This document shows positions 2,530 through 58,649 of a stretch of 64,000 nucleotides of DNA, piece after piece. The stretch lies in the IMG/VR virus record IMGVR_UViG_3300031344_000003, positions 38,815 through 102,814 of that record; one strand, written 5' to 3'. The DNA comes from a virus. Its lineage: Duplodnaviria; Heunggongvirae; Uroviricota; Caudoviricetes. Made by a program: the position numbers and the translations under genes. The notes under the pieces are model-generated. The model was not told the DNA's origin, made no database searches, and was given only the letters and a program-made list of their open reading frames with translations. The first letter of the stretch is position 1. The number at the start of each line of letters is the position of its first letter.

Positions 2530-3477
2530 ATGTCACTGTGCGGAGGTTGTGGATCTACGTTTGACCCATGGTCATTGAGTGGAAAAGGTAGATTTGTAAG
2601 TCGATGGTGTCGATGTTGTGTTGATGGCACTAAACGTCGTCAAGTGTTTGATTGTTTAGGTTGTCATCAACACATTGATCGTTGGGTTGAAGGTCTTTAT
2701 ACCTCACCAACTTTTTGTAATAAGTCATGTAGAATGAAGTATGAATATGCTAACAATATTAGGCGTAATTTTCTTAATGATAAAACAACGTGGGAATGGT
2801 GGGTCAGTAAATACGGCGAAGAAGAAGCACTTCGTAGAAAAGAGCATCATCGCGACGCAACATCACTAGCTACGTCGGGAGAAAATAATCCGATGTATGG
2901 GCGTCATGATCATGTACACGGTTTGAAACGTTTTGCCAAAGAAAAGACTGGTAAAACACTTGAAGAAGTGCATGGCGTTGATCTAGCAAGGAAAATGCGC
3001 GAGAACAAGTCATTACATGCGCGTGGGTCAAATAATCCTGCGTATGGCAAGGTGTATACGAAAGGTGGAAAGAGCATTAAGGGTTACTACAAAGACAAGT
3101 TTTTTCGTAGTCTACTCGAGTATTCATTCATGAAACATCTTGAGAGTGAGGGGTTATCGCTTAACATTGATGTTGATTATGAGTGCTTCATTGTTCCATA
3201 TGTGTTCAATGGTGCTGATCGGACATATCGCGTTGATTTTTACGTGCCAAGTCGTCATGCAGTGTATGAAGTCAAACCTGCTTATGCTATGAAAGGTGTG
3301 ACGCCCATCAATGAAGCAAAATGGAGTGCAGCACGTGTATACTTCAACCAACGCGGCATACAATTTTATGTAATGTCTGAGTTAGATTTTCCAAAGATCA
3401 TGTTTGATATCGCGAGACAAGACAGCGATGTGACATGGAAAGAAGAGACGTTCAAGTATTTCAAGAGGTCAAAATGA
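2530..3477 (+). CDS. putative homing-endonuclease-like protein: Cys-rich HNH-like N-terminus, NUMOD3-like repeats, C-terminal PD-(D/E)xK-like motif
   Basis: N-terminal CGGCG..CRCC..CLGCHQH..CNKSC. Repeats ENNPMYGRHDHVHG and SNNPAYGKVYTKGG resemble NUMOD3 (N.MYGK.HSEE). C-terminal RVDFYVPSRHAVYEVKP fits D...EVK. Sits in a low-GC island. Confidence 0.45.
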   Translation: MSLCGGCGSTFDPWSLSGKGRFVSRWCRCCVDGTKRRQVFDCLGCHQHIDRWVEGLYTSPTFCNKSCRMKYEYANNIRRNFLNDKTTWEWWVSKYGEEEALRRKEHHRDATSLATSGENNPMYGRHDHVHGLKRFAKEKTGKTLEEVHGVDLARKMRENKSLHARGSNNPAYGKVYTKGGKSIKGYYKDKFFRSLLEYSFMKHLESEGLSLNIDVDYECFIVPYVFNGADRTYRVDFYVPSRHAVYEVKPAYAMKGVTPINEAKWSAARVYFNQRGIQFYVMSELDFPKIMFDIARQDSDVTWKEETFKYFKRSK

Positions 3478-6799: not shown

Positions 6800-8122
6800 A
6801 TGAAGAGCATGAAGCGACTACTGGTGACGACGCAGTTGAGCAACTTTGTCGACGGTAAAGCAGATCTCGCTTGCGATAGCGGGTGGCAAATGTGCATCAA
6901 CCGCATCCGCGAGATGCTACGATTGAACCCCAACCTCTACGTCGACATCATGGGACCCAATGAGGATCAGTTGGTGCAGCACCCCGCCGACGTCAATCCT
7001 GATCTGGTTGCGATGTACGGCGAGATCGACGTGCCACGATTGCGGTACATTGAGCACCCAATCGTCACCAGCGCGCTGATCACCCGCTATGACTTCAAGT
7101 GGTCGGAGATCGCCGACTCAATGGGCCTCGAGGAACACAAGGCTGATGTCACCCAGCGCTATGACGCCGTCTATGTGAATGATCCCATGCAGCTCCGCGC
7201 CTTCAAGGCCATGTTCCACGTCGTCGGGGGCTACCAACCCAAGTTCTTCGTGCACTCACACTTCGTCGACGTCCCCGAGGTCCCCAAGTTCCCAGCCGAA
7301 GCGTCGCTGTGGCTGGGCCAGTGCGAGGCCACGCTGAAGGCTGACTACAACTTCTGGCAGTGCGAGTCGGCGATGAACCAGTTCTTCGACAGCATGGGCA
7401 AGTGGTTCGTGCAGGACGTGGTCGACGACGTGCGGGCTAAATCGCAAGCGTCTGATGACGGGTATTCGATTGCGGAGATCACTTCGCCCATATGCCAAGC
7501 TAATCTACGGTTTACGGACGCTGAGTGGCGTGCCAAGACTAATGGTAAGGTGGTACTGTTCTTTCCCAATCGCATTAGCCAGAGTTCAAGTGATTACACG
7601 CGTGGTTGGTGGTTCACACATGAGTTCATGCCCAAACTTCGACAACGTCGCCAAGACTATGTCGTGGTGTGCGGTAATCCTAACATGAAGCTGTCGAATG
7701 ATGAACTCGTTCAATTATGTGGGCCTCATGGTTATGTTAAGCTGCACGATCACACGTTCAATCGTGATGAGTATAAGTACGTTGCGTCACACAGTGACAT
7801 TGTCGTAGCGCTGTATGATGCCAAGAGTGACGCGTACGGTGGGACGGCCTCTCGAGAATGCATTGAATTGGGGTGTGTACCATGCTGGCCTTCTTGCAAT
7901 GAATATTTGAGCCTTGCTCGAGAAGCAAGAGTTGAACACCTATTGGCCAAGTCTGACTTGTCTGATTTAGTAGACGTCGCAGACAATCTCATTGGTCTTG
8001 CGGGTTCATCATCTTTGCCATTGAAACAGTACAATGAACGATTGCGTGAAGTTGTACGTAGGCGCTGTTCGTTTGAACAGACTGTTCCCACAATGATGAA
8101 AAAGATGGGTCTACTATGCTAA
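6800..8122 (+). CDS. putative glycosyltransferase (GT-B-like; weak similarity to the T4 beta-glucosyltransferase UDP-binding motif)
   Basis: C-terminal YDAKSDAYGGTASRECIELGCVPCWP resembles GT-B E..G..EA..G.P and T4 BGT IYGGSFRSGQRE. Start set at MKSMKRLL after a GGGAG RBS. GC drops sharply after about 7440, so the gene looks chimeric. Confidence 0.35.
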   Translation: MKSMKRLLVTTQLSNFVDGKADLACDSGWQMCINRIREMLRLNPNLYVDIMGPNEDQLVQHPADVNPDLVAMYGEIDVPRLRYIEHPIVTSALITRYDFKWSEIADSMGLEEHKADVTQRYDAVYVNDPMQLRAFKAMFHVVGGYQPKFFVHSHFVDVPEVPKFPAEASLWLGQCEATLKADYNFWQCESAMNQFFDSMGKWFVQDVVDDVRAKSQASDDGYSIAEITSPICQANLRFTDAEWRAKTNGKVVLFFPNRISQSSSDYTRGWWFTHEFMPKLRQRRQDYVVVCGNPNMKLSNDELVQLCGPHGYVKLHDHTFNRDEYKYVASHSDIVVALYDAKSDAYGGTASRECIELGCVPCWPSCNEYLSLAREARVEHLLAKSDLSDLVDVADNLIGLAGSSSLPLKQYNERLREVVRRRCSFEQTVPTMMKKMGLLC

Positions 8123-9141
8123 TTGAAGTTCTCGAAACATGGATCAAGACGCCTCGATACAAGAATCGTGGTAAACGACGATTGTTAGCGATTGTTGCGT
8201 GTGATGCGTGCGGCAAACGTGAACAGCTACCATACATCAACGGAATGTGGGAGACTCGAAAACGCGTCTGTTCACCTGAGTGTGATACAAAACTACGATC
8301 TCGTGGTGGTGCGCTTTATGCAAGTATCACGGCGACGAACGTAGAGCGATATGGCGCAAAGTACGCATCAGCGACTGATTTAGGAAAGCACAAACAGGAA
8401 GAGACAAATCTTAGAAAGTATGGATATAAGGCATCCTCACAATCACCTGAAGTTGAAGCTAAACGACTTAACACGTGTCTTTCTATGTATGGCGGACCTG
8501 CAGCAACAAGTGACGCGAACGTCAGAGCGAAAGTCAAGTTGACGTGTGATACCAAGTTTGGTGGTGGTGTGTTGCTCGATGATGATATTCGAGAGCAATT
8601 CAACGCAACTATGGTAGAACGACATGGTGCACCGTGGGCAGCACAATCAGCAATCATTCTCGCTAAACAACATCAGACCAACATTGAACGTTATGGAGTT
8701 GCGTTTCCATTCCACACAGATGAAGCGAAGTCAAGAGCACACTCACCCCAAGCGCTACTCAAACGCCATGAGACCATGAAGCGTAATGGCACATACAGGA
8801 CTTCAAAGCCTGAAGACCGTCTCTATCAAGTTCTGTGTGAGATGTTTGATATAGACGACGTCGACCGCCAGACGCTCGTATACAAGTGGCCAATTGACTT
8901 CTACGCCAAGAGCATTGACACCTACGTACAGTACGACAGTTATTGGCATGGCGTCGGACGCGCAATCATTGAGGTCGCTGAACACAAGGTGCCTCGAGAC
9001 GTCTCGATTCACAAGAAGATGCTGACTGACATCGCTCAGGATGCGTACTTCGCCGAACGTGGCATGCGGCTCATTCGTGTGCAGAGCCTGACGCCTGAAC
9101 AGATTACCCCCGCGGCCATGCGTCGCATGGGCCTGCTGTGA
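8116..9141 (+). CDS. putative homing-endonuclease-like protein: Cys4 zinc ribbon, tandem ERYG repeats, C-terminal DUF559/Vsr-like motif
   Basis: CDACGKR...CSPEC. Repeats NVERYGAKYAS / LRKYGYKAS / MVERHGAPWA / NIERYGVAF. C-terminal PIDFYAKSIDTYVQYDSYWHG is like the DUF559 .DF...IE.DG..WH. In a low-GC segment. Confidence 0.4.
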   Translation: MLIEVLETWIKTPRYKNRGKRRLLAIVACDACGKREQLPYINGMWETRKRVCSPECDTKLRSRGGALYASITATNVERYGAKYASATDLGKHKQEETNLRKYGYKASSQSPEVEAKRLNTCLSMYGGPAATSDANVRAKVKLTCDTKFGGGVLLDDDIREQFNATMVERHGAPWAAQSAIILAKQHQTNIERYGVAFPFHTDEAKSRAHSPQALLKRHETMKRNGTYRTSKPEDRLYQVLCEMFDIDDVDRQTLVYKWPIDFYAKSIDTYVQYDSYWHGVGRAIIEVAEHKVPRDVSIHKKMLTDIAQDAYFAERGMRLIRVQSLTPEQITPAAMRRMGLL

Positions 9142-9556: not shown

Positions 9557-10513
9557 ATGACCGAACGGGTATTGATCACGGGCGCGGCGGGTTTCATCGG
9601 CTCAAACCTGGTCACCCGGTGCCTGGCCGAAGGGTGGGTCGTCCGCGGCGTCGACGACATGAGCAGTGGCCACCGAGAACTGCTGCACCCCGCCTTTAAT
9701 ACTGGTAGCCTGTTGATCGGCGACTTTGCCGCTGATTTCGTCCTCAACTCGATCAGGGCACAGGCCTTCGACGTCGTCATTCACCTGGCGGCGACGCCCC
9801 GCGTCAGCTATTCCGTCGAACACCCGCTGGAAACGCACGACAACAACGTCACCAAGACGCTGAAGTTGCTCGACGCCTGCACGGGCAACGTCAAACGCTT
9901 CGTCTTCGCCAGCTCCAGTGCCGTCTATGGTGGCGCGCTGGAGCTGCCCACTCCCGAGACGGCACCCAAGGAACCCAAGTCGCCCTATGCACTCCAGAAG
10001 TCGATCATTGAGGACTACCTGAAGTTGTACAGCAACCTCTACGGCCTCGACAGCGCTTGCCTGCGGTTCTTCAACGTCTTCGGCCCGGGCCAGTTGGGTA
10101 GCAATCCCTATGCGACGGCGATCGCGGCGTGGCTGACAGCGATCAAGCGCGGCGAGCCCATGCGCAGCGACGGTGACGGCTTTCAAAGCCGCGACATGTG
10201 CTACGTCGACAACGTCACTGATGCCTGTGCCAAGGCGGTGCAGAGCAAGGTACCCCTGATGGGAGCGTGTTACAACGTGGCCTGCGGCGACAATGTCTCC
10301 AACAACGACATCTTGGCGGTGTTGCGGGCCCATTACCCAGAGGCGACCGTCGTCAATGCGCCGGCTCGACGGGGCGACGTGATGCACACCATGGCCGACG
10401 TGTCGAAGGCCCAGCAACAGTTGGGCTACGTGCCGCTGGTCAAGTTCTGGCCGGGCCTCATCAAGACGATGATGTGGTACGAGCGTGAGTGGGAACAGAT
10501 CAGGAGCCTGTGA
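9557..10513 (+). CDS. NAD-dependent sugar epimerase/dehydratase (extended SDR)
   Basis: LITGAAGFIGSNL Rossmann motif, SSSAVYG, YALQK (YxxxK). Confidence 0.85.
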   Translation: MTERVLITGAAGFIGSNLVTRCLAEGWVVRGVDDMSSGHRELLHPAFNTGSLLIGDFAADFVLNSIRAQAFDVVIHLAATPRVSYSVEHPLETHDNNVTKTLKLLDACTGNVKRFVFASSSAVYGGALELPTPETAPKEPKSPYALQKSIIEDYLKLYSNLYGLDSACLRFFNVFGPGQLGSNPYATAIAAWLTAIKRGEPMRSDGDGFQSRDMCYVDNVTDACAKAVQSKVPLMGACYNVACGDNVSNNDILAVLRAHYPEATVVNAPARRGDVMHTMADVSKAQQQLGYVPLVKFWPGLIKTMMWYEREWEQIRSL

Positions 10514-14647: not shown

Positions 14648-15787
14648 GTGATACCCATTCGCCGCCCATTCACAATGAAACTGCCCGCTGAAGTGTTGAC
14701 CCTATCGAGCCTCTTCAATCAGGTGGGTCATGAGCTCTACGTGGTCGGCGGTGCCGTTCGCGATGCGGTGTTGGGGCAATCACCCAAGGACTTTGACGTG
14801 GCGACGGGGGCGACACCAGACCAAGTGGTGAAGCTGCTGAAGACACTGCCTGGCGGGTGCAAGATCAATGCCGTCGGCAAGTCATTCGGCGTCGTCAAGG
14901 TGCAGTTCTACGCCGCGCGCAATGAACTCGAGATCGCCACGTTCCGCCAGGACGTGGGTGCAGGGCGAAGGCCTGAAAGCGTCGTCTTTACCACGATCGA
15001 CGAGGACGTCAAGCGCCGTGATTTAACGATCAACGCGCTGTTCTTCGACATCGAACGCAGCGAACTCGTCGATCTGGTGGGCGGGTTGGCTGACCTCGAC
15101 GCCAAGCTCGTCAGGACGGTGGGCGACCCATTCGCACGCTTTGCCGAAGATCGCCTCCGCATCCTGCGCGCCGTCAGGTTCGCCTGCAAGTTGGGCTTTG
15201 ACATCGAAGGGATGACTGCGCAGGCGATCAAGCACGACCCCAACCTTCACGGCGTGTCGCCTGAGCGCATTCACGACGAGTTCACTCGTGCCGTGGCGAC
15301 GGCGAAACACGTGCCGGCACTGATGCAGCACCTGAACTACTTTGACCTGTGGCCTCACGTGCTGCCGGGCCTCAACGTGTCGTACCAGTTGGCCGAAGGC
15401 ATCACCTCACGCGTGCCTGAGGTCGCACTAGCAGTGCTGCTCGATCACCAGCGACCGTGTGGCATCGACGAGCGTTTGGCCGCGCTGAAGTACAGCGCTC
15501 ACGAGATCTCGCGGACGACGTTCCTGTTGAGGTACCGCGACCTCGAGGTGTCGAGTGCCTTCAAGCTGCGCAAGGCCTTCTTGGCGTGCTCGATGAGCGC
15601 TGAGGTGCTGCAGGACTACTATCGCCTGCGGGGCCTGCCCGTCACTGCGTTGGTCAGGGCCTTCAACGACTACCTGCGCGCGGCGCCCGTCAAGGGCGGC
15701 GACGTGATGAAGGATGGTTTTGCTAAGCAGGCGCTTGGCGCTGAGATTGAACGACGTGAGACCGAGATTTTCAAGGGGTTGCTATGA
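14648..15787 (+). CDS. cca: tRNA nucleotidyltransferase (CCA-adding enzyme) / poly(A) polymerase family
   Basis: LYVVGGAVRD..LG, DFDV and RRDLTINALF are head-domain motifs of the class II CCA-adding family. Confidence 0.8.
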   Translation: MIPIRRPFTMKLPAEVLTLSSLFNQVGHELYVVGGAVRDAVLGQSPKDFDVATGATPDQVVKLLKTLPGGCKINAVGKSFGVVKVQFYAARNELEIATFRQDVGAGRRPESVVFTTIDEDVKRRDLTINALFFDIERSELVDLVGGLADLDAKLVRTVGDPFARFAEDRLRILRAVRFACKLGFDIEGMTAQAIKHDPNLHGVSPERIHDEFTRAVATAKHVPALMQHLNYFDLWPHVLPGLNVSYQLAEGITSRVPEVALAVLLDHQRPCGIDERLAALKYSAHEISRTTFLLRYRDLEVSSAFKLRKAFLACSMSAEVLQDYYRLRGLPVTALVRAFNDYLRAAPVKGGDVMKDGFAKQALGAEIERRETEIFKGLL

Positions 15788-16357: not shown

Positions 16358-16669
16358 GTGATGAAGAAGCTACAGGAAGTCGACGTCATTCGCATCATGC
16401 GCGAGGAATGGTCAGCGAAGGTCAAGACCCTTGCCGAGGAGGTTGACGTCGTCATGAACTCCAAGGTGAAGGATGGTAGCACGGTGGGGGTGCTCTCGCC
16501 GGGATTAAAGATAAAACATAAACAAAGTGGGATTTTGTACACCGTCATGTCCGTCGGCCCACGTGATGTGCTGATCAGGCCGCCCGATGGAGACCCAAAT
16601 GGATCAATTAGTGACACTGCGATGCTCGTCGATGCTGCTGAGCTAGAGCAGTCCTACAAGCTTGACTGA
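16358..16669 (+). CDS. hypothetical protein
   Basis: ORF only. Confidence 0.35.
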   Translation: MMKKLQEVDVIRIMREEWSAKVKTLAEEVDVVMNSKVKDGSTVGVLSPGLKIKHKQSGILYTVMSVGPRDVLIRPPDGDPNGSISDTAMLVDAAELEQSYKLD

Positions 16670-17417
16670 AATTGGGAGATCAATACGAATGGCACAGCAC
16701 GATAAAGAAGACCAGTTGACCGATCTCCTCAAGGGCGTCGACATCAAGGGCATCGTCAATGGCGCGTTGCAGAAGGGTGGTGCTGTCGCTGCCCCCATCG
16801 ACGAGGCCTACGTGGCGCAGCCCAAGCCCTACTCGCAGGTGACGGAGTTCGTGTCCCAGAAGACGAAGGACGCCCACACGTCGCTGTACCAGAAGTACGT
16901 CGAGACGTTGAACCGGGTGTCTGCTGAACTCGACACTGCTTCGAAGTCGGAAGCCAACAGCAACCACTCCGACTTCAGGAGCCTGAAGCTTGATGAGACG
17001 CGGTTGCTGAACGCGGTTTGGCTACATGAACTTTACTTCGCCAACTGCTTTGACGTTCATAGTGAGTGCTACATGAATTCCATGGCGTACATCCGCCTGG
17101 AACGTGACTTCGGCACCTTTGAGGACGCACAGCAGGACATGATGGCATGTGCGCTGGCCTGCGGTGAGGGCTGGATGATCACCGCCTACAACATGTTCCT
17201 CAAACGCTACGTCAACGTCATGGTCACCGACAACAGCCACGACGTGATGTTGGGGCTGTACCCGATCATCGTCATCGACATGCATGCTCACGCGTACTTC
17301 AAGGACTACCTGACTGACAAGAAGAGCTACCTCGTAGCGATGATGCGCCAGCTCAACTGGAACGTCATCGAAGAGCGGTTCACCAAGGCTGAATCGATTG
17401 CCGAGGTGGTCAAGTGA
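16662..17417 (+). CDS. Fe/Mn superoxide dismutase-like protein
   Basis: AVWLHELYF (like WNHTFYW), DFGTFEDAQ, GEGWMITAY and IDMHAHAYFKDYLTDKKSYLVAMMRQLNWNVIEERF parallel SOD DVWEHAYYL...NWENV. Metal-ligand His/Asp positions look retained. Confidence 0.6.
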   Translation: MTEIGRSIRMAQHDKEDQLTDLLKGVDIKGIVNGALQKGGAVAAPIDEAYVAQPKPYSQVTEFVSQKTKDAHTSLYQKYVETLNRVSAELDTASKSEANSNHSDFRSLKLDETRLLNAVWLHELYFANCFDVHSECYMNSMAYIRLERDFGTFEDAQQDMMACALACGEGWMITAYNMFLKRYVNVMVTDNSHDVMLGLYPIIVIDMHAHAYFKDYLTDKKSYLVAMMRQLNWNVIEERFTKAESIAEVVK

Positions 17418-31731: not shown

Positions 31732-32013
31732 ATGGCAAAGACAGCACCCGCAAAAGCAGTCGCAGAGATGATGCCCGACGAGATCACCGCCTTGCGCGCC
31801 GTGGTCAACGACTTCATGGGCCAAGTGAGTTCGATCGACAACGAGATTGAGACCCTGAAGGGGGATCGCAAAGAAGTCATCGAGTCCTTCAAAGACAAGC
31901 TCGATATGAAGACGTTGCAGACTGCGCTGAAGGTCATCAAGCTCCAGAACAGCATTGCGCACAAGGATGCCTATGACTTGTTCATGGAAGTCCTCGGCGA
32001 TCCGGCCCAATGA
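31732..32013 (+). CDS. hypothetical protein
   Basis: ORF only. Confidence 0.4.
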   Translation: MAKTAPAKAVAEMMPDEITALRAVVNDFMGQVSSIDNEIETLKGDRKEVIESFKDKLDMKTLQTALKVIKLQNSIAHKDAYDLFMEVLGDPAQ

Positions 32014-32222
32014 ACCGCGGCACCGCCTGCAATGACTGCATCAGGTGTGCAGAGATCAAGGTCGCCGCACGTGGGGTGCGCGCCACTCTTCTTGAACCTG
32101 AGTTGAATCGCATGTTCCTGTGTCCGACGTGTGGCAACAAGCGGTGTCCCAAGGCAACCTACCACGACAACAAGTGCACCGGCTCCAATGCGCCCGGACA
32201 GGAAGGCAGCGACTACAAATGA
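32010..32222 (+). CDS. small Cys-rich zinc-ribbon protein
   Basis: CNDCIRC...CPTCGNKRC. ATGA coupled on both sides. Confidence 0.35.
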   Translation: MNRGTACNDCIRCAEIKVAARGVRATLLEPELNRMFLCPTCGNKRCPKATYHDNKCTGSNAPGQEGSDYK

Positions 32223-33754
32223 GTGCCGATATTGAGTGGGATAAATCGGTGATCTTGAACGCTGACAATGAACATCTCCTTGCTTTGCCAGTCATGTCGT
32301 TCATCAAGGGATTGGTCGAGCGGTACGGCGCTAGCGTTGACACGTGTCTCGATGCCCGCAAGCACCGCAGCATCGTTGACTGCGACTTCGCTCGTTCACC
32401 CGAGGAGCTCGACTCATCATGGCGTGCGGCACCCCCACCTGCCGACCTCATCGATCGCCGCGTCGAGATCACCGGGCCGCCCACCCGCAAGGGCGTCATC
32501 AATGCTCTCAATTCGGGCGCTGACGTCTTCATGGCCGACTTTGAGGACTCATGCTCACCGACGTGGGACAACCTGATCAGTGGTCAGGTCAATCTCTTCA
32601 ATGCCGTTCGTCGCACCATTACCTACGACGATCCTACGACGGGCAAACACTACTCGCTCAATGACAAGCCAGCGGTGTTGATGGTCAGGCCCCGGGGCTG
32701 GCACCTCAAGGAGAAGCACGTCAGGCTCGATGGCAAGCCCGTGCCTGCGGCCCTGGTCGACTTCGGTCTCTATGTCTTCAACAATGCACACGAACTGTTG
32801 TCACGTGGGTCAGGCCCGTATCTGTACCTGCCCAAGATGGAGAGTCACCACGAGGCGAAGCTGTGGGACGATGTCTGTTCCTACGCAGAGCAGGTACTCA
32901 ACCTGCCCATGGGCGCCATTCGCACGACGTGCCTGATCGAGACGCTGCCTGCCGCCTTCTGTATGGACCGCATCATCTACGCCCTCCGCGACCGCATCGT
33001 GGGCCTCAACTGCGGGCGCTGGGACTACATCTTCTCCTTCATCAAGAAGCGCCACGATGACCCGAGCGCGGTGTTACCCGATCGCTCGCTGTTGACGATG
33101 GACAAGGCATTCCTCAACGCCTACGATGAGCTGTTGGTGCAGACGTGCCACAAGCGCGGCATCCACGCGATGGGCGGCATGGCGGCGCAGATCCCGATCA
33201 AGGGCAATGCCGAGGCCAATGACGTCGCCATGGAGAAGGTACACACCGACAAGTTGCGTGAAGCAGCGATGGGCCACGACGGCACTTGGGTCGCCCACCC
33301 GGGTCTGATCCAGATCGCTCGTGAGGCCTTCAAGGACTGCGGGCCCAATCAGATCGATCGGCCACGCACCAATCGACCCATCACTCGCGACGAGCTGTTG
33401 TTGGTGCCGTCAGGTCCCTGCACCGAGGAAGGCCTGCGCCACAACATCAGGGTTGGCATCCAATACCTCGAGGCGTGGTTGAGCGGCAATGGCTGCGTGC
33501 CCCTGTACAACCTGATGGAGGACGCGGCGACGGCCGAGATCTCACGTGCCCAAATATGGCAGCAACTACACCACGGTGCGATCGTCGGCGGGCGCCCACT
33601 GACCTACGTCAGGTTGGCGGACATCATCAGCCAAGAAACAATGCCACTGGTGGGCGCGCGGATCGACGATGCGATCAGGTTGTTCATGAAGGTTGCATGC
33701 GACCCGCACGAGTTCACCGACTTTCTGACGCTGCCCGCCTACGACATGCTGTAA
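32219..33754 (+). CDS. aceB: malate synthase A
   Basis: EITGPPTRKGVINALNSGADVFMADFEDS..PTWDNLISGQVNL, GRWDYIFSFIKK and other signature blocks. Confidence 0.9.
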   Translation: MSADIEWDKSVILNADNEHLLALPVMSFIKGLVERYGASVDTCLDARKHRSIVDCDFARSPEELDSSWRAAPPPADLIDRRVEITGPPTRKGVINALNSGADVFMADFEDSCSPTWDNLISGQVNLFNAVRRTITYDDPTTGKHYSLNDKPAVLMVRPRGWHLKEKHVRLDGKPVPAALVDFGLYVFNNAHELLSRGSGPYLYLPKMESHHEAKLWDDVCSYAEQVLNLPMGAIRTTCLIETLPAAFCMDRIIYALRDRIVGLNCGRWDYIFSFIKKRHDDPSAVLPDRSLLTMDKAFLNAYDELLVQTCHKRGIHAMGGMAAQIPIKGNAEANDVAMEKVHTDKLREAAMGHDGTWVAHPGLIQIAREAFKDCGPNQIDRPRTNRPITRDELLLVPSGPCTEEGLRHNIRVGIQYLEAWLSGNGCVPLYNLMEDAATAEISRAQIWQQLHHGAIVGGRPLTYVRLADIISQETMPLVGARIDDAIRLFMKVACDPHEFTDFLTLPAYDML

Positions 33755-33769
33755 ACAGAGAGGTGCGAC

Positions 33770-35152
33770 ATGGATGACATCAAACGACCCTACACTCCCG
33801 CTGACGTCAAGCGCCTGCAGGGCCGCACCCGAATCGTACACTCGCTGGCCGAGAATGGTGCCGGTCGATTACGTGCTATGATGGTGAACCAATCCGTGCG
33901 GGCGTTGGGAGCGCAGACTGGCAACCAAGCGGTGCAGATGGTCAAGGCAGGATTGAAAGCCATATATGCGTCAGGTTGGCAAGTTGCCGCCGACGCCAAC
34001 ACGTCAGGCCAGACCTACCCAGATCAGTCACTGTACCCCGTCGACAGCGTGCCCACCCTGGTCAGGCGCATCAACAATGCACTGCTCCGTGCCGAGCAGA
34101 TCGATGCGATGGAAGAGGCAGATGGCCAACGCAGCGAGAATCATCGTCACTGGTTAGCGCCCATCGTTGCAGATGCTGAGGCAGGCTTTGGCGGTCACCT
34201 CAACACCTATGAACTTGTCAAGGCGTTGATCGAGGCCGGTGCGGCAGGCATTCACCTCGAGGATCAGCTGTCGAGCGCGAAAAAATGCGGGCATTTAAAT
34301 GGGAAAGTGCTCATCCCGACGTCTCAAGCGATCAACAACCTCGTCGCCGCCCGCCTCGCTGCCGACGTGCTCGAGGTGCCGACGGTCATCATTGCTCGCA
34401 CCGATGCACTGAGTGCGCAATTGATAACCAGTGATATTGACGAACGAGATCGCCAGTTCGTTGCACCAACTAGTCGCACTTCGGAAGGTTTCTACCACCT
34501 GACGGGCGATCCCATGCAGCGGACGATCGCTCGTGGCCTCGCCTATGCGCCCTACGCCGACCTGCTGTGGTTCGAGACGTCAACGCCCGATTTGGCGCAA
34601 GCCAAGCAATTCGCTGAGGCGATCCACGCACAGTTCCCGGGCAAGCAGTTGGCCTTCAATTGTTCGCCGTCGTTCAAGTGGCGCAAGCACCTGACGGACG
34701 ATCAGATCGCCTCGTTTCAGGATGACCTACACGCGATGGGTTATGTCTTCCTCTTTGTAACCCTCGCGGGTTGGCACGCCAATGCCAGCAGCGTCTTCGA
34801 ACTGGCGCTCGATTATCACCAGCGTGGCATGGGTGCCTACGTCAAGTTGCAGGATCGGGAATTCACGCTCGAACAAGCGGGCTACACCGCCGTCAAGCAC
34901 CAGCGCGAAGCCGGCACCTCATACTTCGACGCGATCGTTAGTGTCATCACCGGCGGTACTTCGTCGACGTTAGCGATGAAGGGCTCGACTGAGGCCGAGC
35001 AGTTCTCTGAACATGCAACCCCGTACGGGGTAGGATTACCCTATGGCGAAGAAGTCGAAGAAGAAGCGGGAAAAGACGGTGGTGTGCACGGATGTCGGGC
35101 AAGCGAAGTTCGCGCCCCAGCAGACGTACGCCCTGACGCTGACCCGGTTTGA
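33770..35152 (+). CDS. aceA: isocitrate lyase (C-terminal extent uncertain)
   Basis: [11 protein letters not shown] signature, IARTDA, GFGG. The last 50 aa are atypical and overlap ORF 35043. Confidence 0.85.
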
Positions 35153-35561
35153 GGTCCTCCACCTACGCGACCTGTTTAGCATCACGTTGCCCACCGACGT
35201 CAAGCAGACGGTGAGCCAGGGATTGGCCGCCGTCGAGGATCGAGAGATCGTCGAAGCCAAGCTGTGGCGCAAGGTCGCCACCTTGTGTCAAGCGGCGGCA
35301 GTGCCGACTGACGATGCGGCCCCTGACTTCGTCTGCGCGGCGTCGCAGGCACCCCCGGTCGGCGTCTTCAGGCTGGCGCACGATCCGCAGGAGGGTCAGG
35401 AGAATCAGTCACCAACCGGGAGCGTGTTGGATAACATCGTGACCGGTGATGAGAACGTTGATGATCCGGGTGACGACGACCCGTTCATGGGCGCCACGCC
35501 GTCATGGCCCACCGGTGAACCGATCGGACAACGTACACCAAAGAAGGCGAAGCAGCCGTGA
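35043..35561 (+). CDS. hypothetical protein overlapping the isocitrate lyase 3' end by about 110 nt
   Basis: ORF begins [11 protein letters not shown]. The large overlap could instead mean a frameshift in aceA. Confidence 0.25.
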
Positions 35562-36076
35562 CCGCCTACAAGATCGGCCAGCTGATCTATGTGGTTCTTC
35601 GTGGCCAGAACACGGTGTACCCGATGATGATCACCGAGGTCATCAGCAAGCAGACGATGGAAGGTGACAGCATCACCTACATGGTCGCCGGGGGTTCAGG
35701 TACGGGCGCGCAGGTACTGCCGATCGACAAGGTAGACGGTGAGATCTTCACGTCGGCGGCCGAAGTCAAGCGGATGTTACTCGAGCGGGCGACCAACGGC
35801 ATCAACCAGCTGGTCAACAACGCCGTCACTAAGGCGAAGGAGTGGTACCCGACTGCAACAGAAGCGACGACTGAGGGGTGGAAGTCCAATACTGAACCTC
35901 CTCACAAGAGCATCCATGCGCCTGGGCCGCAGATCAAGGCGCGAGGTGCCAAGTCGACCAAGGCGCGCGAAGAAGTGCCGCCCGTGACTGAAGAATTACC
36001 CGTCGATGGTGATGGCGTCACAGTGCAGATGCCCGACGGCACTGTCGCCCGCGTCAAGCTACCCGCCTCGATGTGA
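35558..36076 (+). CDS. hypothetical protein
   Basis: ATGA-type coupling. Confidence 0.4.
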   Translation: MTAYKIGQLIYVVLRGQNTVYPMMITEVISKQTMEGDSITYMVAGGSGTGAQVLPIDKVDGEIFTSAAEVKRMLLERATNGINQLVNNAVTKAKEWYPTATEATTEGWKSNTEPPHKSIHAPGPQIKARGAKSTKAREEVPPVTEELPVDGDGVTVQMPDGTVARVKLPASM

Positions 36077-37063: not shown

Positions 37064-37480
37064 ATGCGTGACGCGGGTTGGCTGGTGCTGGCGATCGTGG
37101 GTTGGGGTTGTTGGCCCGTCACCCAGGCGCTGGCGACTCGCTACATGCACCCGTTGTCAGTGCAGTTGACCAACGTTTGCATCTGTGGCGCGCTGGCGCC
37201 CATCCTCTACGTGTGGATGCGATCGAACGCTCAAGTGGGCAGCTTCAACGTGCCCGGGGTGTTGTGGACGCTGGCGTCGACAGTGCTAGCGGGCATGGCG
37301 GGCCTCGGCTTTCTGTTCGCCACCAAGCAACGACCCGCCAGTGAAGTGCTGTCGTACACTCAAGTCTACCCGGCCCTATCATTCATCATGTGTTGGGTGA
37401 CACTGGGCGAGACGTTCACACTGGTGAAGGTCATCGGCGCGGTGCTGTTGGTCGCCGGTTGCGTCGTCATGAACCAGTGA
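37064..37480 (+). CDS. small 4-TM membrane protein (EamA/SMR-like transporter fold)
   Basis: Four hydrophobic helices in 138 aa. Confidence 0.45.
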   Translation: MRDAGWLVLAIVGWGCWPVTQALATRYMHPLSVQLTNVCICGALAPILYVWMRSNAQVGSFNVPGVLWTLASTVLAGMAGLGFLFATKQRPASEVLSYTQVYPALSFIMCWVTLGETFTLVKVIGAVLLVAGCVVMNQ

Positions 37481-38533: not shown

Positions 38534-38862
38534 TGACCGATCGCTTCACCTGGGACTCCGACGGCGTCCTCAACTATGCCTTCACCGGCGCGGCACTTGA
38601 CGAACAATGGTCACGTGAATTGTCACAGATGCATCACTTGTCGTACGATGAGGGCGGTGCCGTCAAGTTCCTGAAGGCGCGCCTGGGCAGGCAGAAGTTC
38701 TGTTGGCAGGGGTCATCTGTTCGCAATTGGGTCTGGGAGGGCGACGATTGGCGTGCCTTCGCCTCGACCCGCGGCGTCTCGTTCGAGGTACGCACGGGCT
38801 CGACGGTTGAACAGGCCTTCGCTGCGTGGCAGGACTTCAAGCGAAAGGTGGGACTAACATGA
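38530..38862 (+). CDS. hypothetical protein
   Basis: ATGA overlap. Confidence 0.4.
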   Translation: MMTDRFTWDSDGVLNYAFTGAALDEQWSRELSQMHHLSYDEGGAVKFLKARLGRQKFCWQGSSVRNWVWEGDDWRAFASTRGVSFEVRTGSTVEQAFAAWQDFKRKVGLT

Positions 38863-45662: not shown

Positions 45663-45841
45663 AAAATACGGGCTTCTTTCTCCGCTTTCTTCGTGGGTTC
45701 ACGTGCAAACACGAGTGGGGCAACGTCGTCGAAATCGTTCACGACGAAGGTGACCTCATTCGCGACTGGCTCGGTTCGAGCTACACCAGACACACGTACA
45801 TCTGCAATCAGTGTGGCAAGGAAAAGACATGGACACGTTGA
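45659..45841 (+). CDS. small zinc-finger protein (GTG start)
   Basis: CKHEWG...CNQCGKE. Confidence 0.3.
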   Translation: MKNTGFFLRFLRGFTCKHEWGNVVEIVHDEGDLIRDWLGSSYTRHTYICNQCGKEKTWTR

Positions 45842-46893
45842 CGAAAGAGCCTGGTTTCACCCGTTCACTGCGGGAAGAGTTGGTGCAGGTGTCGCCCGAC
45901 TTTCAGGTTCGGGTGCACCGGCCGGGGGCGTTGTCCGACGCTGAGTTGATGGCACTGACGATGCGGCACGATGCTGACCCGGCGATGTATCACCCGGAGC
46001 CCGTTAATGCCAGTGGAGTATCGATCCTGGGCGACGTCACCCCTGCCGACGAGGCGATGGGCATGAGCGCGATCAAACGCGGTGAAGTTGCCATGGTGGT
46101 ACTGGCGGGCCGGGCCCCCAAGTTGCTTGCCAAGATCCCGGGCGTTGACACCAGCATGCTGGCGTGGAAGCTGATGCAGGGCGGCGACATGCCCGTGTGG
46201 ATCATGGTGGCGCCTGACCAATTGGCGCCGGCGGAGCACCACATCAAGCAATTGGTGCTGTCACCCAACCTCAGGGGCACCCTCTTCACGCAGTTCGAGG
46301 GGTACCGCCTGACACCCGACAATAGGATGGCATGGGTGGCACCGGGGGTGCCCGACTTGGGCCCGTTGGGCAACGGTGACCTGGGCCCGGCACTGCACGA
46401 GGCAGGCATCCTCGCCGAACACCCCAACGTCAAGTGGGTCTTCATCTGCAACGTCGACAACGTCATGGCGTCGCCGCACGAGGGCCTCATCGGCCTTCAC
46501 ATCAGGCACCGGGCACCCATCACCTGTGAGGTCGTCGACCTGCACCCGGACGATCGGGGCGGCGTGCTGGCTCGCGTCGAGGGTTATCGTCAGCTCGCCG
46601 AGGATTGGCGGTTACCGTCAGGTTTTGCGAAGCCGGGCATGTTCTATAGCACTAACACCATGCTCGTCAACGTCGAGGTGTTGCAGACCCACTTTGCATG
46701 GCGCTGGCACCGCATCCGGCGGGAAGTGGGCAATCGACTGGTGGTGCAGCACGAGCGCTTGCTCCAGCAGTACACCGAGGAATTCGGTGCCGTCTACGTG
46801 CGGGTACCGAGGGACATGCGGTACGTGTCGGCCAAGACGACGGCGGGTCTCGAAGAAGCGGGTAAGGCAATCCTACGAACGAGGCACCCATGA
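45829..46893 (+). CDS. UDP-sugar pyrophosphorylase (UDPGP / UTP-glucose-1-phosphate uridylyltransferase family)
   Basis: PLGNGDLGPALHEAG, VKWVFICNVDNVMA and related blocks. AAGGA RBS before ATG 45829. Confidence 0.55.
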   Translation: MDTLTKEPGFTRSLREELVQVSPDFQVRVHRPGALSDAELMALTMRHDADPAMYHPEPVNASGVSILGDVTPADEAMGMSAIKRGEVAMVVLAGRAPKLLAKIPGVDTSMLAWKLMQGGDMPVWIMVAPDQLAPAEHHIKQLVLSPNLRGTLFTQFEGYRLTPDNRMAWVAPGVPDLGPLGNGDLGPALHEAGILAEHPNVKWVFICNVDNVMASPHEGLIGLHIRHRAPITCEVVDLHPDDRGGVLARVEGYRQLAEDWRLPSGFAKPGMFYSTNTMLVNVEVLQTHFAWRWHRIRREVGNRLVVQHERLLQQYTEEFGAVYVRVPRDMRYVSAKTTAGLEEAGKAILRTRHP

Positions 46894-53329: not shown

Positions 53330-54094
53330 ATGTGCACCCTCATCGTCCTCAGTGAAGCGATCGATGGTTACCCACTCGTCGTCGCCGCCAATCGCGATGA
53401 GCACTATGATCGGCCTTCGCTGCCGCCTGCAATCACCGGTGATGTCATCTGCCCGCGTGATCTCCACAAGGGTGGCACGTGGCTGGGCGTGGCTCGTGGT
53501 GGCTGGTTCGCCGGGTTGACCAACCAAGTCGACGCCCACCAACCGCACCTGCTGGCGTCACGAGGCCACGTCGTTGATGCTTGCCTCAAGGCCGGCAATC
53601 ACCTGGCCGTGGCCCAATACCTGCAGGGGCTTGATCGTGGCGTCTACAACAACTTCAACCTGGTCTTTGGCAGGCCCGGCGCCATTTTTTTGTGCCGTGT
53701 CTGGGGGCTGCACGCGCTGGAGATGCTCGTGGTGCCTGCAGGAACCAGCGTCTTCACCAATGATTGTTGGGACGGGCAGTTTCAGGCCAAGGCCGAGCGC
53801 GCCCGCGAATTGACCACCCACCTCGCCGGCGCAGTACCGATCCACGACGTCAAGAACGCGTTGTTCGCAGTGCTGTCAGACCACCAACACGGTGACGATC
53901 CTCGTCAATCGATGTGCATCCATGCCGACGGTTGGGGCACTCGTAGCACCTCGATCATCACAGTGTCCAATGAGGGGGCCGTGGAGTACTACTATTCAGA
54001 TGGTGCACCGTGTAGGAGTCCCGGTGTTGCATGTGTGGGCGTTCTATCGATTGATGACGAACTCATCACTGACGCAGACCTGAAGAAACCCTGA
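53330..54094 (+). CDS. NRDE/TANGO2 (DUF833) family protein
   Basis: Starts MCTLIVL and contains the VVAANRDEHYDRP NRDE motif. Confidence 0.6.
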   Translation: MCTLIVLSEAIDGYPLVVAANRDEHYDRPSLPPAITGDVICPRDLHKGGTWLGVARGGWFAGLTNQVDAHQPHLLASRGHVVDACLKAGNHLAVAQYLQGLDRGVYNNFNLVFGRPGAIFLCRVWGLHALEMLVVPAGTSVFTNDCWDGQFQAKAERARELTTHLAGAVPIHDVKNALFAVLSDHQHGDDPRQSMCIHADGWGTRSTSIITVSNEGAVEYYYSDGAPCRSPGVACVGVLSIDDELITDADLKKP

Positions 54095-56962: not shown

Positions 56963-56999
56963 TTGAACAATCGGCCTAATCAGGTGTATGATTGAGGCC

Positions 57000-58649
57000 A
57001 TGAACGACAATACCACGCACGTCATCTTTGCCGCGGACGCTCGTAAGCAACTGTGGGCCGGCATGAAGATTGCTGCCGATGCCGTCACCACGACGTTGGG
57101 CCCTAAAGGTCGCACCGTCATCATCCAGCGCGCTAACCAATCCCCTCTGGTGACGAAGGACGGGATCACCGTCGCCAAGTCGATCAAGTTGAAAGATCCC
57201 GTCAAGCGGATGGGCGCCGAACTGATCCTCGAAGCTGCCAATCAGACCAATGAGGTCGCCGGTGACGGCACCACGACGGCCACGTGCCTGACGGCCGCGC
57301 TCGTCGCCGAAGGTTTGAAGCTGGTCGAAGGCGGCTTTAGCCCACTCGAGCTGTGCAAGGGCATTGAGGCAGCGACCGGGTTGGTGCTCGCCGCCCTCAA
57401 ACAACAGGCGGTGCAGGTGTCAACCAGTGCTGCGGTCGCCCAAGTCGGTACCATCAGTGCCAACGGTGATGCACAGATCGGCAAGTTGATCGCCGATGCC
57501 ATGGAACACGTGGGCCGCGACGGCATCATCACCGTCGAGGACGCCAAGGGCATGGCCACGTCAATGTCAATCGCTGATGGCATGCAGTTTGAACGCGGCT
57601 ACATTAGCCCCTACTTCGTCACCGATGCAGAACGGATGCGGGCGACGTACGATGATGCCTTTGTCCTCGTCACTGACAAGAAGATCAGCAGCCTCAAGGA
57701 ACTGATCCCACTGCTCGAGCGAGTGGTGCGGTTACAGAAGGGCCTGCTGATCATCGCTGAAGATGTCGACGGTGATGCACTGACGGGCCTCGTCCTCAAC
57801 CGCGTCAAGTCAGGCCTGCCCGTTGTCGCCATCAAGGCACCCGGTTACGGCCTGCACCGACAAGAGCTACTGCACGACATCTGCGTCATGACGGGTGCAA
57901 CCCTCGTCTCCAGTGCCAACGGCCTGACACTCGACAAGGTCACTGACGCCAACTTGGGACGTGTCAAGCGCTTCAACACCGACGCGAAGTCGACGACGCT
58001 CGTCGGGACGGGTGCTCAAAAGACGCACATTGACACCCACGTGGTTGAACTGCGCAAGCAGCTCGAGGACATCACTCTGGGGCAGGATGAGGTGACCAAG
58101 CTGAAGGTTCGCATTGCCAAGTTGGCCTCGGGCGTCGCCGTCATCCGCGTCGGCGGCGCGACCGAAGTCGAGATGACAGAGCGGCGCTTCCGCGTCGAGG
58201 ATGCATTGAACGCGACGAAAGCGGCCGTCGAAGAGGGCATTGTGCCCGGTGGCGGCATGGCCTTCTACCACGCCGTCCATGCAGTGAAGAGTACGACGGT
58301 CGATGAAGCCACCGGCGCCCACGATGAGCAGGCAGGCATGGGTGTCGTCTATCGGGCGTGCCTCGCGCCGCTCAAGCGCATCATTGAGAATGCAGGTGCC
58401 AGCTCTCCCGTGGTGCTGGCGGAATTGGCGCGCAGGGATGCCGCGGCACCGCTCATCAATGACAACATGGGTTACAACGCGGCGACGGGTGAATACGTCG
58501 ACCTCGTCACTGCCGGCGTCGTCGATCCTGTCAAGGTGGCACGGACTGCACTGAAGAACGCAGCATCAGTTGCTGTCACCTTCCTCAGCCTCGACGCCGT
58601 GGTGTATGATGAACAGGTCACCAAGGAGCAACACGCTGATGAACAGTGA
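57000..58649 (+). CDS. groEL: chaperonin GroEL (Cpn60)
   Basis: TTTLGPKGR, DGITVAKSI, VAGDGTTTAT and a full-length colinear match. Confidence 0.9.
   Translation: MNDNTTHVIFAADARKQLWAGMKIAADAVTTTLGPKGRTVIIQRANQSPLVTKDGITVAKSIKLKDPVKRMGAELILEAANQTNEVAGDGTTTATCLTAALVAEGLKLVEGGFSPLELCKGIEAATGLVLAALKQQAVQVSTSAAVAQVGTISANGDAQIGKLIADAMEHVGRDGIITVEDAKGMATSMSIADGMQFERGYISPYFVTDAERMRATYDDAFVLVTDKKISSLKELIPLLERVVRLQKGLLIIAEDVDGDALTGLVLNRVKSGLPVVAIKAPGYGLHRQELLHDICVMTGATLVSSANGLTLDKVTDANLGRVKRFNTDAKSTTLVGTGAQKTHIDTHVVELRKQLEDITLGQDEVTKLKVRIAKLASGVAVIRVGGATEVEMTERRFRVEDALNATKAAVEEGIVPGGGMAFYHAVHAVKSTTVDEATGAHDEQAGMGVVYRACLAPLKRIIENAGASSPVVLAELARRDAAAPLINDNMGYNAATGEYVDLVTAGVVDPVKVARTALKNAASVAVTFLSLDAVVYDEQVTKEQHADEQ

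Follow-up and report, generated by a model that had tools for sequence, protein, structure and literature searches.

A malate synthase–isocitrate lyase cassette in an uncultivated huge phage, with an isocitrate lyase tail that overlaps the next gene

Genes at the locus

Two enzymes of the glyoxylate shunt, malate synthase and isocitrate lyase (ICL), are encoded back to back on a 64,000-nucleotide stretch of viral DNA that is analyzed here as a whole and called the window (positions 38,815 to 102,814 of IMG/VR record IMGVR_UViG_3300031344_000003, Caudoviricetes). Their genes lie in a long, densely packed array that runs almost entirely on the plus strand; a Cys-rich mini-gene precedes them, and backbone genes referred to below as G93, ORF-D and N172 enclose them (ORF, open reading frame). 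The parts of the locus, in window coordinates, are as follows.

31732..32013, plus strand: G93 (93 aa), a phage backbone gene that forms the upstream edge of the cassette insertion site
32010..32222, plus strand: Cys-rich mini-gene (70 aa) with a zinc-ribbon-like pattern
32219..33754, plus strand: malate synthase A of the aceB type (511 aa), matched by TIGR01344 and Pfam
33770..35152, plus strand: ICL of the aceA type, whole ORF (460 aa), matched by NF011645 and TIGR01346
33770..35005, plus strand: canonical ICL core, residues 1-412, ending ...STEAEQF
35006..35152, plus strand: C-terminal extension of ICL, 48 codons plus the TGA stop
35030..35045, plus strand: Shine-Dalgarno (SD)-like GTAGGAT (35030-35036) and ATG (35043-35045) of ORF-D, inside the ICL tail codons V-G-L-P-Y-G
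35043..35561, plus strand: ORF-D (172 aa), a conserved backbone gene in frame +1 relative to ICL
35558..36076, plus strand: N172, a backbone gene that continues the G93–ORF-D–N172 module downstream

Most of these junctions are tight. Overlaps of 4 nt, reading ATGA or GTGA, join G93 to the Cys-rich ORF, the Cys-rich ORF to malate synthase (the stop of the former and the ATG of the latter at 32219 share ATGA), and ORF-D to N172 (GTGA). Malate synthase and ICL are separated by a 15-nt spacer containing GAGAGG, and ICL and ORF-D overlap by 110 nt. Because a scan for sigma-70 promoters and intrinsic terminators between 29 and 39 kb gave counts no better than chance, operon boundaries cannot be defined.

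The malate synthase is, as far as its sequence can tell, a complete and apparently functional enzyme. It scores 670.9 bits against TIGR01344 malate_syn_A (cut-off 594.5), with residues 25-511 aligned to model positions 6-510 of 511, and Pfam recognizes both the TIM barrel (MS_TIM-barrel, PF01274, E=8.8e-103) and the C-terminal domain (MS_C, PF20659, E=1.1e-30), while against the malate synthase G models the protein stays far under the cut-off. Solved structures are matched end to end (PDB 3cux, E=1.3e-160; Escherichia coli AceB, 3cuz, E=6.2e-154). Residues R157, E241, D269 and D435 pair with positions 165, 249, 277 and 446 of the 3cuz chain, which we take to be R166, E250, D278 and D447 of E. 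coli AceB, namely the catalytic arginine, the glutamate and aspartate ligands of Mg2+ and the aspartate that acts as catalytic base.

The ICL core likewise appears complete and apparently functional. NF011645 is matched with 647.6 bits (cut-off 562) from residue 2 to 413, corresponding to model positions 24-429 of 430, TIGR01346 with 529.6 bits (cut-off 275.9), and PDB 6lrp over residues 4-412 (E=1.9e-163). Models for methylisocitrate lyase (prpB) yield merely 96 and 81 bits against cut-offs of about 354, and other models of the phosphoenolpyruvate (PEP)-mutase superfamily are likewise missed by a wide margin. In an alignment of 19 ICL sequences (A1), the signature K171-K172-C173-G174-H175 with its catalytic cysteine is invariant, and so are S68-G69-W70, D85, D135/E137, H162/E164, R210, E269, N297/S299/S301 and T331, all of which the window protein retains. 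Mapped by motif onto Mycobacterium tuberculosis ICL1, these presumably correspond to S91/G92/W93, D108, D153/E155, H180/E182, R228, E285, N313/S315/S317 and T347, the ligands of Mg2+ and substrate. An AlphaFold model (predicted template modeling score, pTM, 0.75) is confident in the core. The preliminary description of this DNA had proposed full-length, adjacent and co-directional aceB and aceA homologues, and had named truncation or lost catalytic residues as what would speak against them; the two genes do lie in this arrangement, pass the equivalog cut-offs, and are full-length with all catalytic motifs in place.

The same description had tied the Cys-rich mini-gene to the pair. The coupling itself is real in the sense of the 4-nt ATGA overlap with malate synthase, but the idea of a specific partner does not hold up, as four relatives with both enzymes lack the gene and its family is very large and found in many contexts. 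The protein, with the pattern CxxCxxC ... CPxCGNKRCPxAxxHxxxC, accompanies malate synthase only in the window and in the related locus L095 (573-785; 59% identical), and is absent from the relatives L011-L014, which carry both enzymes. No Pfam, NCBIfam or PHROG family matched it. Its own family nevertheless counts, among representative clusters at the 50% identity level, 2,969 with E<=1e-3, of which 140 reach E<=1e-10; the members are either stand-alone proteins of about 70 aa or C-terminal domains of proteins of up to about 314 aa; C10, C13, C38, C41, C46, H52 and C56 are invariant, within the motif C..C ... CPxCGNKRCPxAxxHxxxC(T/S)xSNxxGQxGSxY. PHROGs has no family for either enzyme, the Cys-rich protein, ORF-D, G93 or N172; for G93, the Cys-rich protein and ORF-D, Pfam at E<=1 returned nothing above noise, and N172 is without a Pfam match as well. 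A GapR-like identity of G93 was considered and set aside: one homologue carries a weak GapR_DNA-bd record, which was not reproduced with the window copy in Pfam.

Phage surroundings and insertion site of the cassette

Within the phage clade of the window, ICL is the conserved element, and only a subset of the members have malate synthase as well. At least 24 contigs of JGI, ENA and Logan assemblies carry the exact 460-aa ICL, with identical neighbors, and the longest of them reach 359-361 kb; in the 359-kb records the cassette lies more than 90 kb from the ends. Beyond these, syntenic ICLs on other large contigs are 64-71% identical to that of the window and sit in a shared neighborhood: NUDIX ... 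G93–(malate synthase)–ICL–ORF-D–N172 ... EamA ... 5'-3' exonuclease ... lysozyme. Some relatives carry ICL only (L008, 357 kb; L009, 324 kb; L010; L097), and others carry malate synthase and ICL (L011, 63.6 kb; L012; L013; L014; L095/L096). A neighbor-joining tree places all syntenic ICLs in one clade of 29 members. In IMG/VR at large, 175 viral contigs have ICL homologues, and by tblastn malate synthase adjoins ICL in 43 of the 80 loci retrieved.

The cassette is inserted between the conserved backbone genes G93 and ORF-D. Homologues of G93 (51-82% aa identity, tblastn) stand directly upstream of malate synthase or ICL in L008-L014 and L095, and directly upstream of ORF-D in the IMG/VR loci L016-L029; homologues of N172 (25-60% aa identity, tblastn) follow ORF-D in all related loci. 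G93, ORF-D and N172 are contiguous in several huge phages, with ICL placed after N172 in L020, L021, L026 and L029, and ICL is found away from the three genes in L016, L018 and L022. Since the three genes occur side by side without a cassette, they are part of the phage backbone; the clade of the window has the ICL cassette, with or without malate synthase, between the first two.

A comparison with L095 and L096 illustrates the history of this cassette. Malate synthase and the first ~45 nt of ICL are 83-95% identical to the window at the nucleotide level, the remainder of ICL only 52-71%, and from the start of ORF-D (first full 150-nt window) identity is again 89%; at the protein level, the malate synthase of L095 is 92% and its ICL 65% identical. 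These sharp identity jumps, which edge the ICL allele of L095 (2352-3666) and L096 against window positions 33815-35035, indicate that recombination has exchanged the ICL allele, and it alone, in one of the two lineages, and such a replacement argues that ICL function is kept by selection. The ICL of L095 has a GC content at third codon positions (GC3) of 0.48, as against 0.59-0.82 for its neighbor genes, and the ICLs of L095/L096 are tail-less proteins of 411 aa with their own stop, followed by an AT-rich spacer of ~75 nt.

We assign the window to a phage on the basis of its architecture, its gene content, the size of the contigs and the classification of its relatives as viral in IMG/VR, where relatives that share its backbone genes are contigs of more than 200 kb. 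The two enzyme genes qualify as auxiliary metabolic genes in that they have phage backbone genes on both sides, are kept in diverged relatives and recur in many assemblies. Megablast and blastn searches of the locus against GenBank phages returned no match, and there is no close cultured relative. The nearest cellular homologues point to contradictory hosts: the closest named cellular match to ICL (~66%) is from Thermoleophilia/Gaiellaceae, that to malate synthase (~59%) from Polyangiaceae. Other products of the window are a fragment of a DnaE-type polymerase with matches to phage DNA polymerase families, a thymidylate synthase, a NUDIX hydrolase, a 5'-3' exonuclease and an AAA/clamp-loader-like ATPase; no tRNA genes were found in it. 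The following genes were recognized elsewhere in the window; those for the epimerase, the superoxide dismutase domain, the EamA-type transporter, the pyrophosphorylase-like protein and the TANGO2 family member are further host-like genes.

2530-3477 and 8116-9141: two homing/HNH-type endonuclease-like ORFs
9557-10513: nucleotide-sugar epimerase (PHROG E=1e-66)
14648-15787: CCA-adding tRNA nucleotidyltransferase
16662-17417: C-terminal domain of Fe/Mn superoxide dismutase (E=4e-17)
37064-37480: small EamA-type transporter (E=2e-13)
45811-46893: UDP-glucose pyrophosphorylase-like (E=1e-9)
53330-54094: TANGO2 family (E=3e-29)
56988-58649: full-length GroEL-type chaperonin (PHROG E=6e-146)

In the relatives L008 and L009, a Thg1-like tRNA-His guanylyltransferase lies ~4 kb downstream of ICL, and the same neighborhood holds a rubrerythrin-like protein in L008 and a UvdE endonuclease in L009.

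The ICL tail and its overlap with ORF-D

The match to NF011645 ends at ICL residue 413, and 48 residues lie beyond F412 (nt 35005), whereas bacterial ICL homologues terminate 0-10 residues past the equivalent of the EQF end. The atypical tail of roughly 50 residues that the preliminary description had seen overlapping an ORF at 35043 is thus present, with an overlap of 110 nt. After EQF the ICL frame stays open until the TGA at 35150-35152, which is read as TT-TGA-G within the Phe-Glu codons TTT-GAG of ORF-D; in relatives with TTC-GAG or CTG-GAG at this site, the ICL read-through extends further. The position of the ICL stop is therefore a consequence of the synonymous choice between TTT and TTC in ORF-D. 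Since at least 24 contigs share the exact ICL together with its tail, the tail is not the error of a single assembly. Residues 416-460 have an AlphaFold pLDDT (predicted local distance difference test score) of ~30 and no secondary structure. Within one ICL clade, tails of 0, 8-15, 24-69 and up to 91 aa occur, the tail-less members including P0013, P0017, P0039 and others.

The composition of the overlap is that of ORF-D. Read in the ORF-D frame, the 110 nt have GC values of 0.50/0.42/0.89 at codon positions 1/2/3; read in the ICL frame, their GC3 is 0.42, compared with 0.69 for the ICL core. The SD-like GTAGGAT, which contains a TAG in frame +1 ahead of the ORF-D ATG, is followed after 6-8 nt by ATG or GTG in 6 of 7 clade loci, and it is this conserved SD and start codon that make the ICL tails of relatives look as if they shared a motif, VGSxH[GAV]. 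The N-terminal block that ORF-D proteins conserve, (K/R)TFxLRLTxFELLHLRDLF, has already begun before the ICL frame reaches its stop, and in L095, where the two genes do not overlap, ORF-D starts at the same ATG. We interpret these features to mean that ORF-D is probably translated separately from its own start. The anatomy of the overlap is plain; as to its meaning, the ICL tail is most likely a tolerated, disordered by-product that arises because no stop closes the ICL frame ahead of ORF-D.

ORF-D has 29 homologues, all unnamed and without Pfam domains. Their alignment (A2) has 20 invariant columns, and behind the core motif KTFxLRLTxFELLHLRDLF...SQALA...APDFV...PPVGVF lies an acidic C-terminus. 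In IMG/VR, a search with a peptide pattern for ORF-D gave no matches, and its distant homologues were recovered by tblastn on loci fetched via ICL; its AlphaFold model (pLDDT 60.8, pTM 0.37) is too poor for a fold search. The notion that ORF-D is an ICL-specific partner was rejected, as it adjoins G93 with no ICL in between in other huge phages. Gene callers place the start of ORF-D at a TTG at 35187, which leaves 124 aa, or omit the gene altogether. The suspicion of a mis-called ICL boundary therefore falls away: the end of ICL is genuine, and the boundary that callers get wrong is the start of ORF-D. In practical terms, the locus should not be "corrected" as a frameshift, for the long ICL tail is genuine and ORF-D is a gene that callers truncate or drop.

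Three further details of the junction may be recorded. A palindrome at window positions 35002-35012, GTTCTCTGAAC, has a counterpart at the same position in L008 and L009, GTTCACTGAAC; it spans the last codons of the ICL core and the first of the tail, which encode the conserved Q-F-(T/S)-E-H, and could be a coding coincidence. In L011 (8240-8330), ORF-D has been lost while its SD and ATG survive ahead of a 27-codon remnant, which the 24-aa ICL tail still crosses. In L014, the ICL stop and the ORF-D start meet in an overlap, ATGGTTGA, an arrangement that may resemble the ancestral state.

Proposed function, alternatives and comparison with known systems

From the biochemistry of the two families, it can be expected that the phage ICL would compete with the host isocitrate dehydrogenase by converting isocitrate to succinate and glyoxylate, and that the phage malate synthase would combine glyoxylate with acetyl-CoA to give malate. 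Two CO2- and NADH-producing steps of the tricarboxylic acid (TCA) cycle would be bypassed, so that C2-derived carbon would be kept for biosynthesis and C4 acids replenished in the infected cell, and lower NADH production would mean less NADH-driven oxidative stress. As a matter of speculation, the superoxide-dismutase-like gene of the window fits the oxidative-stress rationale. ICL, which stands at the branch point, is kept across the lineage and malate synthase is optional; clade members with ICL only would presumably depend on the malate synthase of the host.

Taken as a whole, the locus is very probably an auxiliary metabolic cassette, malate synthase A followed by ICL, of an uncultivated huge phage of ~359 kb, with the ICL tail as an incidental read-through. 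Several observations pull in the other direction. ICL starts ~20 residues later than bacterial ICLs, and the start is not extendable since an in-frame TAA, the malate synthase stop, lies five codons upstream. Pfam did not match the N-terminal helical domain MS_N (PF20656) in the malate synthase of the window, nor in three (P0123, P0124, P0183) of the four phage relatives closest to it, though the TIGR01344 alignment covers the N-terminal region, so the domain has probably diverged rather than been deleted. No capsid, terminase or portal gene was found among the scanned ORFs of the 64-kb window, which represents a part of ~359 kb. The ICL C-terminus takes part in active-site closure in M. tuberculosis structures, and a 48-aa appendage could affect activity. 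In most syntenic clade members the ICL frame still runs on as far as the ORF-D start codon or beyond, the shortest such extension being the 14 aa of L014, and right after EQF a conserved F-[ST]-E-H lies in a stretch that no other gene overlaps. These last two features, and the persistence of the arrangement across ICLs merely 65-70% identical, are what one would cite for a selected read-through that tunes ORF-D translation by coupling or occlusion, or for an acidic disordered tail that modulates the enzyme through oligomer contacts, the active-site lid or escape from host regulation. We regard such selection as unlikely, however, given that the tail varies from 0 to 91 aa with its length set by a synonymous site of ORF-D, that the overlap follows the composition of the ORF-D frame, that tail-less members exist within the clade and in L095/L096, that RNA folding around the ORF-D SD of the window reveals no significant structure (z = -0.5), and that the tail is predicted to be disordered. 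Similarly unlikely is a compound version in which the read-through is a selected device, linking ORF-D synthesis to ICL translation or supplying an acidic tail that alters regulation, and the G93|ORF-D junction is a dedicated exchange site for glyoxylate-shunt alleles. A frameshift, suggested by the preliminary description as programmed or otherwise, is highly improbable, whether as a programmed one (+1/-2) that would yield an ICL–ORF-D fusion or as one introduced by sequencing or assembly. It has in its favor that the two genes overlap by 110 nt in adjacent frames and that positions 35068-35074 read G GGA AAA, a heptamer in the zero frame of ICL. This heptamer, the only one present, leads into the -1 frame; that frame is not the one of ORF-D and meets a stop after 22 codons, and the heptamer is absent from L008-L012; no conserved slippery sequence leads into the ORF-D frame. 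Moreover, the same sequence was obtained on at least 24 contigs by different assemblers, the canonical ICL reaches EQF in its own frame, leaving nothing for a frameshift to restore, and ORF-D, equipped with a conserved SD and start, stands alone beside G93 in other phages.

The remaining alternatives concern the origin and the use of the enzymes and not the tail. That the aceB-aceA pair is host bacterial DNA mis-assembled into a phage, or that the contig is not viral at all, might be argued from the lack of a structural gene in the window and from named cellular homologues that lie little further away than the phage ones (~66% for ICL, ~59% for malate synthase), yet we hold this to be barely credible. 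Both junctions recur with the same flanks in independent assemblies and in diverged relatives, 4-nt overlaps tie the cassette to its neighbors, and backbone-sharing relatives are found in IMG/VR on contigs of more than 200 kb. GC content is even across the window, GC3 of malate synthase (0.79) and ICL (0.69) is within one standard deviation of the 38 other window genes (0.73 ± 0.12), and the cosine of codon usage to the window pool is 0.94 and 0.93, respectively, with a mean of 0.91 for other long genes. Codon usage like that of the rest of the window, together with the presence of the locus on at least 24 contigs, speaks against host contamination or a chimera, and the earlier proposal of phage-borne genes is borne out. 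It is also conceivable that the enzymes serve something other than a complete shunt, with ICL alone providing glyoxylate and succinate or acting as a 2-methylisocitrate lyase and malate synthase being optional. Consistent with this, ICL occurs without malate synthase in the 357-kb and 324-kb relatives and, according to a recent preprint, in 76 of 98 huge phages (bioRxiv 10.1101/2025.02.27.640493). Nonetheless, both enzymes are present and adjacent in the window phage, the ICL models are passed where prpB is missed (96 bits vs a cut-off of 354), and ICL-only phages can use the malate synthase of their host, which together make this alternative rather improbable.

With the cassette read as a glyoxylate-shunt pair of a huge phage, it joins a known group of systems: phage aceBA cassettes were published in 2013, 2017 and 2025. 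The present locus seems to add to these a defined insertion site, an account of why the tail overlaps the next gene, and an ICL allele exchanged by recombination. Annotators can make use of these additions, and their evolutionary interest is mild; they will not surprise specialists and open no new biological question. Within the same gene array, the ICL/ORF-D overlap of 110 nt is far longer than the 4-nt ATGA/GTGA overlaps, and it resembles overprinting in compact phage genomes, where likewise one frame is selected (here ORF-D) and the other (here the ICL tail) is atypical in composition and variable in length.

Compared with the bacterial aceBA(K) operon (3cuz; ICL 6lrp, 1f61, 1igw), the window has the same gene order, the same families and the same catalytic residues at 50-66% identity. 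It differs in an ICL N-terminus shorter by ~20 aa, a 48-aa C-terminal extension and a malate synthase N-terminal domain that has passed beyond Pfam recognition; no AceK match was found among the scanned large ORFs of the window, and ICL is followed by ORF-D and N172, which are without Pfam matches. Among phages, aceA and aceB were reported from Pacific Ocean viromes (Hurwitz et al. 2013, PMC4053976), and an aceBA operon from the 179-kb marine viral genome TARA_ERS478052_N000008 (Nishimura et al. 2017, PMC5332604). The latter is similar in that aceB and aceA are adjacent in a large uncultivated phage and were read as reprogramming host carbon metabolism; it is, however, a marine genome of a T4-like lineage, unlike the ~359-kb window phage with its DnaE-type polymerase and no close cultured relative. 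Marine-type pairs in IMG/VR are ~50% (malate synthase) and ~60% (ICL) identical to those of the window and have no ICL tail. Phage C48C1 (OQ984149.1, Kyanoviridae) carries a stand-alone ICL, labeled "hypothetical protein" and 54.5% identical over 92% of the query, but it belongs to another virus family, has a 156-kb genome, and lacks both malate synthase and the G93, ORF-D and N172 neighbors.

A close parallel is the survey of huge phages (>=200 kb) in a 2025 preprint on the Huge Phage Genome Collection, which counts 98 ICL and 22 malate synthase genes in 98 genomes, adjacent in 20, and places the carriers of malate synthase in marine, soil and plant-related habitats (bioRxiv 10.1101/2025.02.27.640493). 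The pattern given there, with some phages having ICL only and some having both enzymes, is the one seen among the relatives of the window; the G93|ORF-D site, the ICL tail with its overlap and the ICL allele replacement are not described in the part of the preprint that was read. The locus thereby adds a well-documented soil-type huge-phage case to the published evidence for the glyoxylate shunt in large phages.

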